Shown piece by piece: positions 25,785 through 28,022 of a stretch of 64,000 nt of DNA. The first letter of the stretch is position 1; each line of letters starts with the position of its first letter. The stretch lies in assembly GCF_030013595.1 (NCBI RefSeq), contig NZ_CP122768.1; one strand, given 5' to 3'. The notes under the pieces are model-generated. The model did no database searches. It had not been told where the DNA came from and saw only the letters and a program-made list of their open reading frames with translations. Made by a program: the position numbers and the translations under genes. The stretch is from Escherichia coli. Its GTDB lineage: Bacteria; Pseudomonadota; Gammaproteobacteria; Enterobacterales; Enterobacteriaceae.

Positions 25785-28022
25785 GTGGACTGGCTTCTTG
25801 ATGTTTTTGCTACCTGGCTCTACGGCTTAAAAGTAATCGCGATAACGTTAGCGGTCATCATGTTCATCAGCGGGCTGGACGATTTTTTTATTGATGTCGT
25901 CTACTGGGTACACCGCATTAAACGCAAGTTGAGTGTTTATCGCCGCTACCCGCGAATGAGTTACCGCGAACTGTATAAACCAGATGAAAAACCGTTAGCG
26001 ATCATGGTTCCGGCGTGGAATGAAACGGGCGTCATCGGCAATATGGCCGAGCTGGCGGCGACCACGCTCGACTATGAAAACTATCATATCTTTGTTGGCA
26101 CCTACCCCAACGACCCCGATACTCAGCGTGATGTTGATGAAGTGTGCGCTCGCTTCCCAAACGTGCATAAGGTAGTCTGCGCGCGTCCTGGCCCCACCAG
26201 CAAAGCCGACTGCCTGAACAACGTGCTGGACGCCATCACCCAGTTTGAGCGTAGCGCCAATTTCGCTTTTGCTGGTTTTATTCTGCATGACGCCGAAGAC
26301 GTAATTTCACCGATGGAATTGCGTCTGTTCAACTATCTGGTCGAGCGTAAAGATCTGATTCAGATCCCGGTATACCCATTCGAACGCGAATGGACGCACT
26401 TCACCAGCATGACTTACATTGATGAGTTTTCAGAACTGCATGGCAAAGATGTTCCGGTGCGTGAAGCCCTCGCCGGACAGGTGCCCAGCGCAGGCGTCGG
26501 TACTTGTTTCAGCCGCCGCGCCGTGACCGCACTGTGAGCTGACGGTGACGGTATTGCTTTCGACGTGCAGAGTCTTACTGAAGATTACGACATTGGTTTC
26601 CGCCTGAAAGAAAAAGGTATGACGGAAATTTTTGTCCGTTTTCCGGTGGTGGACGAAGCCAAAGAACGCGAGCAGCGTAAATTTTTACAGCACGCACGGA
26701 CGTCAAACATGATCTGCGTGCGCGAATATTTCCCCGATACCTTTTCGACTGCGGTTCGACAAAAATCTCGCTGGATCATCGGCATTGTTTTCCAGGGCTT
26801 TAAAACCCACAAATGGACCTCCAGCCTGACGCTGAACTACTTTCTCTGGCGCGACCGCAAAGGGGCAATCAGTAACTTTGTCAGCTTCCTCGCGATGCTG
26901 GTGATGATCCAGCTTTTGCTGTTACTGGCGTATGAAAGTTTGTGGCCCGATGCCTGGCATTTCCTTTCTATTTTCAGCGGCAGCGCATGGTTAATGACCC
27001 TGCTGTGGCTAAACTTTGGTTTGATGGTTAACCGCATCGTGCAGCGGGTGATTTTTGTCACTGGCTACTACGGTCTGACGCAGGGGCTGCTATCTGTCCT
27101 GCGTCTTTTCTGGGGCAACCTGATTAACTTCATGGCCAACTGGCGCGCGTTAAAACAGGTACTTCAACACGGCGATCCACGTCGCGTCGCGTGGGATAAA
27201 ACAACGCATGACTTCCCCAGCGTGACTGGCGATACCCGCTCGTTGCGCCCGTTAGGCCAAATTCTGCTGGAAAATCAGGTCATCACTGAAGAACAACTCG
27301 ATACAGCACTGCGTAATCGCGTCGAAGGTCTACGCCTGGGCGGTTCAATGCTGATGCAGGGGCTGATTAGCGCCGAACAGCTGGCACAGGCGCTGGCAGA
27401 GCAAAACGGCGTGGCGTGGGAGTCGATCGACGCCTGGCAGATCCCTTCATCACTGATTGCCGAAATGCCGGCCTCCGTGGCGCTGCATTATGCAGTACTG
27501 CCGCTGCGTCTGGAAAATGATGAGTTAATTGTCGGCAGTGAAGATGGTATTGACCCGGTTTCGCTGGCGGCCCTGACGCGTAAAGTCGGACGCAAAGTGC
27601 GTTACGTCATTGTTCTGCGGGGACAAATTGTCACGGGGTTACGCCACTGGTATGCGCGCCGACGCGGTCACGATCCGCGGGCAATGTTGTACAATGCGGT
27701 TCAGCATCAGTGGCTCACGGAACAGCAGGCCGGTGAAATCTGGCGGCAATATGTGCCGCATCAGTTCCTGTTCGCCGAAATACTGACCACGCTCGGTCAT
27801 ATTAATCGTTCAGCAATTAACGTGTTGTTATTGCGCCATGAACGTAGTTCTCTGCCGCTCGGCAAGTTTTTGGTCACCGAAGGCGTTATCAGCCAGGAAA
27901 CGTTGGATCGCGTCCTGACAATTCAACGCGAATTACAAGTTTCGATGCAATCACTATTACTCAAAGCAGGTTTAAACACAGAACAGGTTGCGCAACTGGA
28001 GTCCGAAAATGAAGGAGAATAA
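25785..28022 (+). pseudogene. nfrB: Phage N4 adsorption protein B (NfrB, glycosyltransferase family 2 / c-di-GMP-binding), interrupted by a single in-frame TGA at 26535-26537
   Basis: Two ORFs (25785..26537 and 26565..28022) are in the same frame; local reading is ...SRRAVTAL*ADGDGIAFDVQSLTEDYDIGFR... with exactly one stop codon. Apparent GTG start at 25785. Confidence 0.8.

Follow-up and report, generated by a model that had tools for sequence, protein, structure and literature searches.

The window analysed here is a 64,000-nt stretch of Escherichia coli DNA whose plus strand carries, in this order, cusRS, nfrB, nfrA, ybcH, envY and ompT. The nfrB frame is interrupted once, by a TGA at codon 251 (...SRRAVTAL*ADGDGIAFDVQS...), and is otherwise open from its GTG start to its terminal TAA (Table 1). 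A sequence-only reading of this DNA had described two nfrB ORFs lying in the same frame and parted only by this TGA, and both its coordinates and its description are correct. Beyond the stop the first in-frame start is a GTG at 26565, which opens an ORF of 485 aa (STE74311.1). Residues 7-250 align to positions 1-244 of the NCBIfam equivalog profile NF008411 and the piece 3' of the stop aligns to positions 247-722 of its 723 positions; at 531.8 and 771.8 bits, neither fragment reaches the cutoff of 1170. As judged from these alignments, the locus is nfrB by descent and neither fragment alone qualifies as NfrB.

The nfrBA-ybcH operon context is present at the locus. The nfrA ATG overlaps the 3' end of nfrB, as the sequence-only reading had noted; the overlap is 14 nt, the same as in K-12 (PMC8669469).

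Table 1. The nfr locus in the window, and NfrB residues of published function
Feature	Coordinates	Strand	Description
nfrB frame	25785..28022	+	GTG at 25785, TAA at 28020-28022; 745 sense codons plus terminal stop; exactly one internal stop
nfrB 5' fragment	25785..26537	+	GTG start, 250 sense codons, premature TGA; N-terminal membrane helix and first half of the GT2 domain, including D169 of the DxD motif; exact protein STE74310.1
R43H	25912..25912	+	CGC>CAC (G>A); second clone-specific change in nfrB
Premature opal codon (codon 251)	26535..26537	+	TGA, from TTA (Leu) by T>G at 26536
nfrB 3' remnant	26538..28022	+	Codons 252-745 plus stop; predicted to be untranslated; TED, QxxRW, hydrophobic segment and MshEN still encoded
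nfrA	28009..30981	+	Outer-membrane TPR/beta-barrel export protein; intact, 990 aa; NF007302 over its full length, 1884 bits against a cutoff of 1223
ybcH (DUF4434)	30982..31872	+	Third gene of the nfrBA-ybcH operon; intact, 296 aa; positions 1-296 of 296 of profile NF007404
NfrB D169			HDAED; upstream of the stop
NfrB D267			TED; downstream of the stop
NfrB W330			QKSRW (QxxRW); downstream of the stop
NfrB L490, G491, L537			MshEN domain; downstream of the stop

Position of the stop within NfrB

Pfam places the GT2 domain of NfrB at residues 70-332 (PF13641) and 165-382 (PF13632), and the c-di-GMP-binding MshEN domain at residues 542-628 (PF05157; also NF053729). A strongly hydrophobic segment lies at about residues 360-390, and both it and the MshEN domain are encoded 3' of the stop. 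No solved structure was found by sequence for a homologous GT domain: the PDB matches cover the MshEN part only, and all are to the MshEN domains of PilB, PilF or MshE. The residues of published function (D169, D267, W330, L490, G491 and L537) keep the same numbers in the window allele (Table 1).

The sequence-only reading had taken the first 250 codons to hold the glycosyltransferase domain. This is wrong, as the stop bisects the domain. The 250-aa product retains D169, and the TED and QxxRW motifs lie beyond its end, so that it should be catalytically dead and not a free-standing domain. As read from the sequence, it has only one catalytic signature of the three, and neither the linker membrane helices nor the regulatory domain; the MshEN domain is still encoded and is not expected to be translated.

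Origin and spread of the L251* allele

Alignment to intact nfrB alleles had been proposed in the sequence-only reading as the way to identify the ancestral codon, and a natural stop at this position in intact references had been named as one of the results that would overturn the interpretation. The comparison set for the alignment, and for the probes described below, comprised 5,426 complete E. coli genomes. nfrB aligned over at least 80% of its length without gaps in 5,031 of them; 334 had no match and 61 a partial match only. In the three closest alleles (L001, L002 and L003), which differ from window nfrB at 3 to 16 positions and are all annotated as intact, codon 251 is the sense codon TTA (Leu) with no length difference, which makes the lesion a T>G transversion. 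None of the three has H43.

To look for carriers we used 43-nt probes centred on the variant base. Megablast seeds on exact 28-mers, and all 28-mers of such a probe cross its centre, so that only carriers can give a match. The probes for TGA (L251*) and for H43 (R43H) each matched 0/5,426 complete genomes; a probe of the same design for a variant start codon, GTA, served as a positive control and matched three of the 5,426. An 85-nt query likewise found no full-length perfect match among the complete E. coli genomes. A natural stop at codon 251 in intact reference alleles is thereby ruled out, and L251*, being absent from all 5,426 complete genomes, marks one clone.

The exact 250-aa and 485-aa products are public (STE74310.1 and STE74311.1), each listed on 36 contigs, and a contig index places these fragments in 54 and 56 collection blocks, respectively. 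At the DNA level GCA_002233385.1 is identical to the window across 6.75 kb and GCA_021649405.1 across 20.9 kb, the stop included in both cases. In GCA_002925925.1, GCA_002517595.1, GCA_021649105.1, SRR10990793 and ERR4899786 the chromosome around nfr departs from the window at only one to three sites per assembly, and all five have the stop; in GCA_021649105.1 further differences occur only at the prophage end of the contig. The allele is thus reproducible in independent sequence data, with DNA and protein identical across many assemblies, and a base-call error at 26536 is ruled out by its occurrence in independent Illumina and long-read assemblies from different laboratories.

One of these assemblies, GCA_002925925.1 (PRDF01), is a nalidixic-acid-resistant derivative of E. 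coli NCDC 62-57 (ATCC 23545), an O138:H14, F18ac+, Stx2e+, STb+, LT-IIa+ strain that originated from porcine oedema disease (PMC8943154). L251* thus belongs to a long-established porcine pathogenic E. coli clone that includes this strain.

The nearest complete genome is that of a pig isolate from the UK, HCP5S3_I2, which aligns to window positions 1-9743 and 11080-33043. Over these 31,707 nt it differs from the window at nine places: one intergenic indel, one intergenic SNP and seven coding SNPs. All seven coding changes alter a protein and none is synonymous (sister to window: pheP L298F, cusA M833I and A41D, fepA T80I, and three in nfrB), a pattern typical of very recent clonal divergence. 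Of the three nfrB changes, R43H and L251* arose on the branch of the window, and a change of the start codon from GTG to GTA arose on that of the sister. Past the stop, nfrB, nfrA and ybcH match the sister lineage exactly and show no decay, which would make the lesion younger than the very recent split from the sister (about three differences per 10 kb). We infer that it also predates the common ancestor of the sampled clone members, among them a reference strain from the mid-twentieth century.

Within the stop-carrying clone, SRR10990793 has nfrB L527V and a 1-bp deletion in nfrA, and two assemblies have nfrA T358P; cusA, ompT and envY vary as well. Three of six within-clone variants fall in nfrBA, which makes up about 25% of the compared sequence, a non-significant excess (p≈0.17) in a set of which two indels come from automated Logan assemblies. 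The variants would fit decay of the nfr operon, without significance. These two indels, for both of which assembly error is possible, are the nfrA deletion of SRR10990793, which splits the gene at window-equivalent position 29525, and a 4-bp insertion that truncates envY in ERR4899786 (window-equivalent 32675).

Predicted consequences of the lesion

What does NfrB do in strains that have it? NfrB and NfrA act with WecB to synthesise the N4 glycan receptor (NGR) and to export it (Sellner et al., PMC8669472), and the Nfr system interferes with motility at high c-di-GMP (PMC8669469). ΔnfrB and ΔnfrA strains escape lysis by N4 (Junkermeier and Hengge, PMC8669469), ΔnfrB also protects against other wecB-dependent BASEL phages (PMC8669472), and NfrB variants D169A, D267A and W330A are each unable to restore N4 plating (PMC8669469). 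The expectation, voiced in the sequence-only reading, that loss of NfrB blocks N4 is supported by published work. N4 can infect UTI89, a strain with O-antigen and capsule (PMC8669472).

NfrB is an inner-membrane family-2 glycosyltransferase, activated by c-di-GMP, that polymerises NGR, probably from UDP-ManNAc; the polymer is exported by NfrA. In the window strain, translation would halt after residue 250, within the catalytic domain, and no NGR would be made; NfrA and YbcH, intact as encoded, would be left with no polymer to export. Such a strain should resist N4 and other NGR-dependent phages, and the Nfr-dependent brake on motility at high c-di-GMP should be absent from it. We put at roughly 85% the probability that nfrB is knocked out by the single opal codon L251* (TTA>TGA), that is, that the allele is null or near-null and stops NGR synthesis.

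The stop may also act on the genes that follow it. Rho-dependent polarity on genes 3' of a nonsense codon is a reasonable expectation, and some 1.47 kb of ribosome-free nfrB mRNA 5' of nfrA may lower expression of nfrA and ybcH in this way. A consensus scan of the plus strand returned weak terminator-like hairpins at 26770-26783, 26897-26913 and 27083-27100, and there are modest C-over-G stretches at about 26700-26900 and 27150-27300; all of these are pattern matches only. If NfrB is inactive anyway, polarity would add little to the phenotype.

Could translation get past the stop? UGA is the leakiest of the E. coli stop codons, and basal near-cognate UGA readthrough in this organism is typically about 0.1-1%, and lower with efficient RF2. 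Readthrough by tRNA-Trp would give a low level of full-length NfrB(L251W) and NGR synthesis would be turned down, not off. There are reports from across the bacteria of in-frame stops maintained under purifying selection (PMC7918605). Natural expression of the nfr operon is low (PMC8669469), so that little enzyme might suffice, and in most clone members 3' nfrB, nfrA and ybcH are undamaged. The absence of decay 3' of the stop fits a young pseudogene but would also fit retained function. Against a leaky allele, no stimulatory structure was found 3' of the UGA: the fold of the 66 nt that begin with it is no more stable than those of shuffled sequence (MFE -11.4 kcal/mol, z = +0.98, with 170 of 200 shuffles as stable or more so). 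Moreover the stop is missing from other E. coli (0/5,426) and is hence not a conserved regulatory feature, some clone members have taken further damage (the 1-bp deletion and T358P in nfrA, L527V in nfrB), and residue 251 lies within the catalytic domain, where replacement of Leu by Trp may itself be harmful. There are no tRNA genes in the window, and hence no local suppressor. We regard a partly active allele of this kind as improbable, and prefer the null or near-null one.

Restart of translation is a further way in which activity might survive, the 250-aa fragment and the 485-aa restart product from GTG 26565 together forming an active synthase. Both fragments are open and are predicted by gene callers, and between them all catalytic motifs are present. 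However, the break sits inside a single GT2 fold, residues 251-260 would be lost, and the split is conserved in no other genome (43-nt probe, 0/5,426). No properly placed Shine-Dalgarno-like motif was found before GTG 26565 or before the later in-frame candidates ATG 26619 and GTG 26646/26649, and because the restart codons have none, efficient reinitiation 3' of the stop is unlikely. A two-piece enzyme is accordingly very improbable. Still less credible is that the TGA is an artefact, or else a selenocysteine or programmed-recoding site, for which nothing speaks but the bare presence of the codon. The identical allele recurs in many independent assemblies, codon 251 was ancestrally a Leu codon, the UGA occurs in one clone only, and there is no SECIS-like hairpin (z = +0.98, as above); a recoding site was rejected on these grounds.

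The predicted knockout has close parallels. In K-12, ΔnfrB and the D169A, D267A, W330A and G491L mutants lose the same catalytic or regulatory elements and N4 plating was blocked experimentally (PMC8669469, PMC8669472); K-12 nfrB mutants also feature in genome-wide screens (PMC7553319). These are laboratory constructs in a rough background, whereas the window clone is smooth (O138) and its resistance is predicted from sequence. The natural nfrB/dgcJ lesions of Sellner et al. concern the same gene and the same premature-stop class and have the same predicted outcome (no NGR, N4 resistance), but they belong to a laboratory lineage, whereas the allele described here is a different one (L251* with R43H) from a wild pathogenic pig clone. 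For nfrB, nonsense mutations, deletions and IS insertions are already on record from both natural and laboratory strains of E. coli (PMC8669472), and L251* is a new allele of a described kind of lesion. A broad literature search for natural nfrB nonsense alleles gave nothing specific, and no paper was found that deals with nfrB lesions in swine strains or describes the L251* allele.

Other nfrB lesions and the cause of the loss

The start-codon change of the sister lineage is found in two genomes, HCP5S3_I2 and LCP30S3_I5, in which the flanking 31.7 kb are nearly identical to the window; in both, PGAP moves the start to an ATC 17 codons further on. Swine strain 210221272 has this GTA too; its nfrB allele, called a pseudogene by PGAP, differs from that of the window at 47 positions (about 2%). 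The variant may have originated independently in 210221272 or have come with a short recombination tract, two histories that look the same here. All three carriers among the 5,426 complete genomes are from swine (codon at L001 6001-6003, equivalent to window 25785-25787, and at L012 8020-8022). Like the window strain, they have a probable inactivating point mutation of nfrB in a pig-associated background; they differ from it in that initiation is affected and not elongation.

Other truncated NfrB proteins occur in public assemblies of natural isolates, where they represent independent truncations at other positions or by other types of mutation. Among the 40 members examined of the cluster of N-terminal fragments, P0003 stops after K343 and is on 123 contigs, and P0002, P0004, P0011, P0013, P0014 and P0015 end in frameshift tails, of which there are at least six different ones. 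All truncated alleles among those examined, other than that of the window, have R43, not H43.

Why was nfrB lost in this clone? The cause that we favour, tentatively and at somewhat less than even odds, is selection by phages that target NGR. Three of the nine differences between sister and window lie in nfrB, which makes up 7% of the sequence (binomial p≈0.02); with nine differences in all this hints weakly at non-random targeting of the gene. Drift, or a cost of the glycan, would account for the lesion equally well. Under drift, L251* would have become fixed, alone or by hitch-hiking, in an expanding pig-pathogen clone to which NGR was dispensable, with no part for phages. The seven protein-altering changes out of seven, which indicate recent divergence and little purifying selection, are in line with this, as are the genomes that have no nfrB match or a partial one (334 and 61 of the 5,426), the numerous independent truncations, and the lack of a significant concentration of within-clone variants in nfrBA (3/6). 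The excess of differences in nfrB speaks against neutral decay, as do the independent start-codon loss in the sister lineage and the otherwise strong conservation of nfrB in E. coli (PMC8669472). Taken together, neutral fixation seems about as likely as phage selection, and both explanations are tentative. It is less likely, to judge from the sequences at hand, that nfrB is a repeated target of inactivation specifically in pig-associated E. coli through niche selection against NGR in the pig gut, whether imposed by phages or by the cost of the glycan. What suggests this reading is L251* in the O138:H14 clone together with the GTG>GTA change, seen once in the sister lineage and once more in 210221272.

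O138:H14 F18+ strains such as ATCC 23545 serve as challenge strains and are targets of phage control in post-weaning diarrhoea and oedema disease. If nfrB is fixed as a null allele in the O138:H14 clone, N4-like phages and others that depend on NGR are predicted to fail against it, and the clone would also be a natural pathogen lacking NGR in which the role of the glycan could be studied. The allele leaves the understanding of NfrB and of phage resistance unchanged; its practical value is modest and lies mainly in the choice of phages for O138:H14 pig strains.

The window also contains an IS element and a prophage. An IS186-type (IS4-family) element of 1,336 bp, with terminal inverted repeats CATAAGCGCTAACTTAAGGGTTG, lies between entD and hokE at 9744-11079 and is absent from the near-identical sister genome. 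From about 37.2 kb onward the window diverges from the sister, and the minus strand of positions 37200-64000 is the late region of a lambdoid prophage, with genes for tail fibre and assembly protein, Lom, J, tape measure, major tail, major head, protease/scaffold, portal and terminase, and a lysozyme-like gene at 63414-63911. Illumina contigs of the stop-carrying clone end within the prophage region, the IS element and the prophage together breaking them at about 27 kb. The window spans both, and for that reason probably derives from the long-read assembly whose proteins have STE-series accessions.

The gene for the prophage terminase large subunit (gpA-like, 641 codons; 58245-60170, minus strand) has an in-frame stop of its own. 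A single TAG (58842-58844) follows residue 442 (...LLRVD*AINKTY...), with a difference of 1 nt in 501 from the closest alleles. None of the 5,426 complete genomes was matched by a 43-nt probe for the TAG allele; public records exist for the 442-aa fragment (STE74065.1 and STE02599.1; 22 contigs). This is a second clone-specific single-base nonsense lesion in the window, and packaging of the prophage is probably defective.
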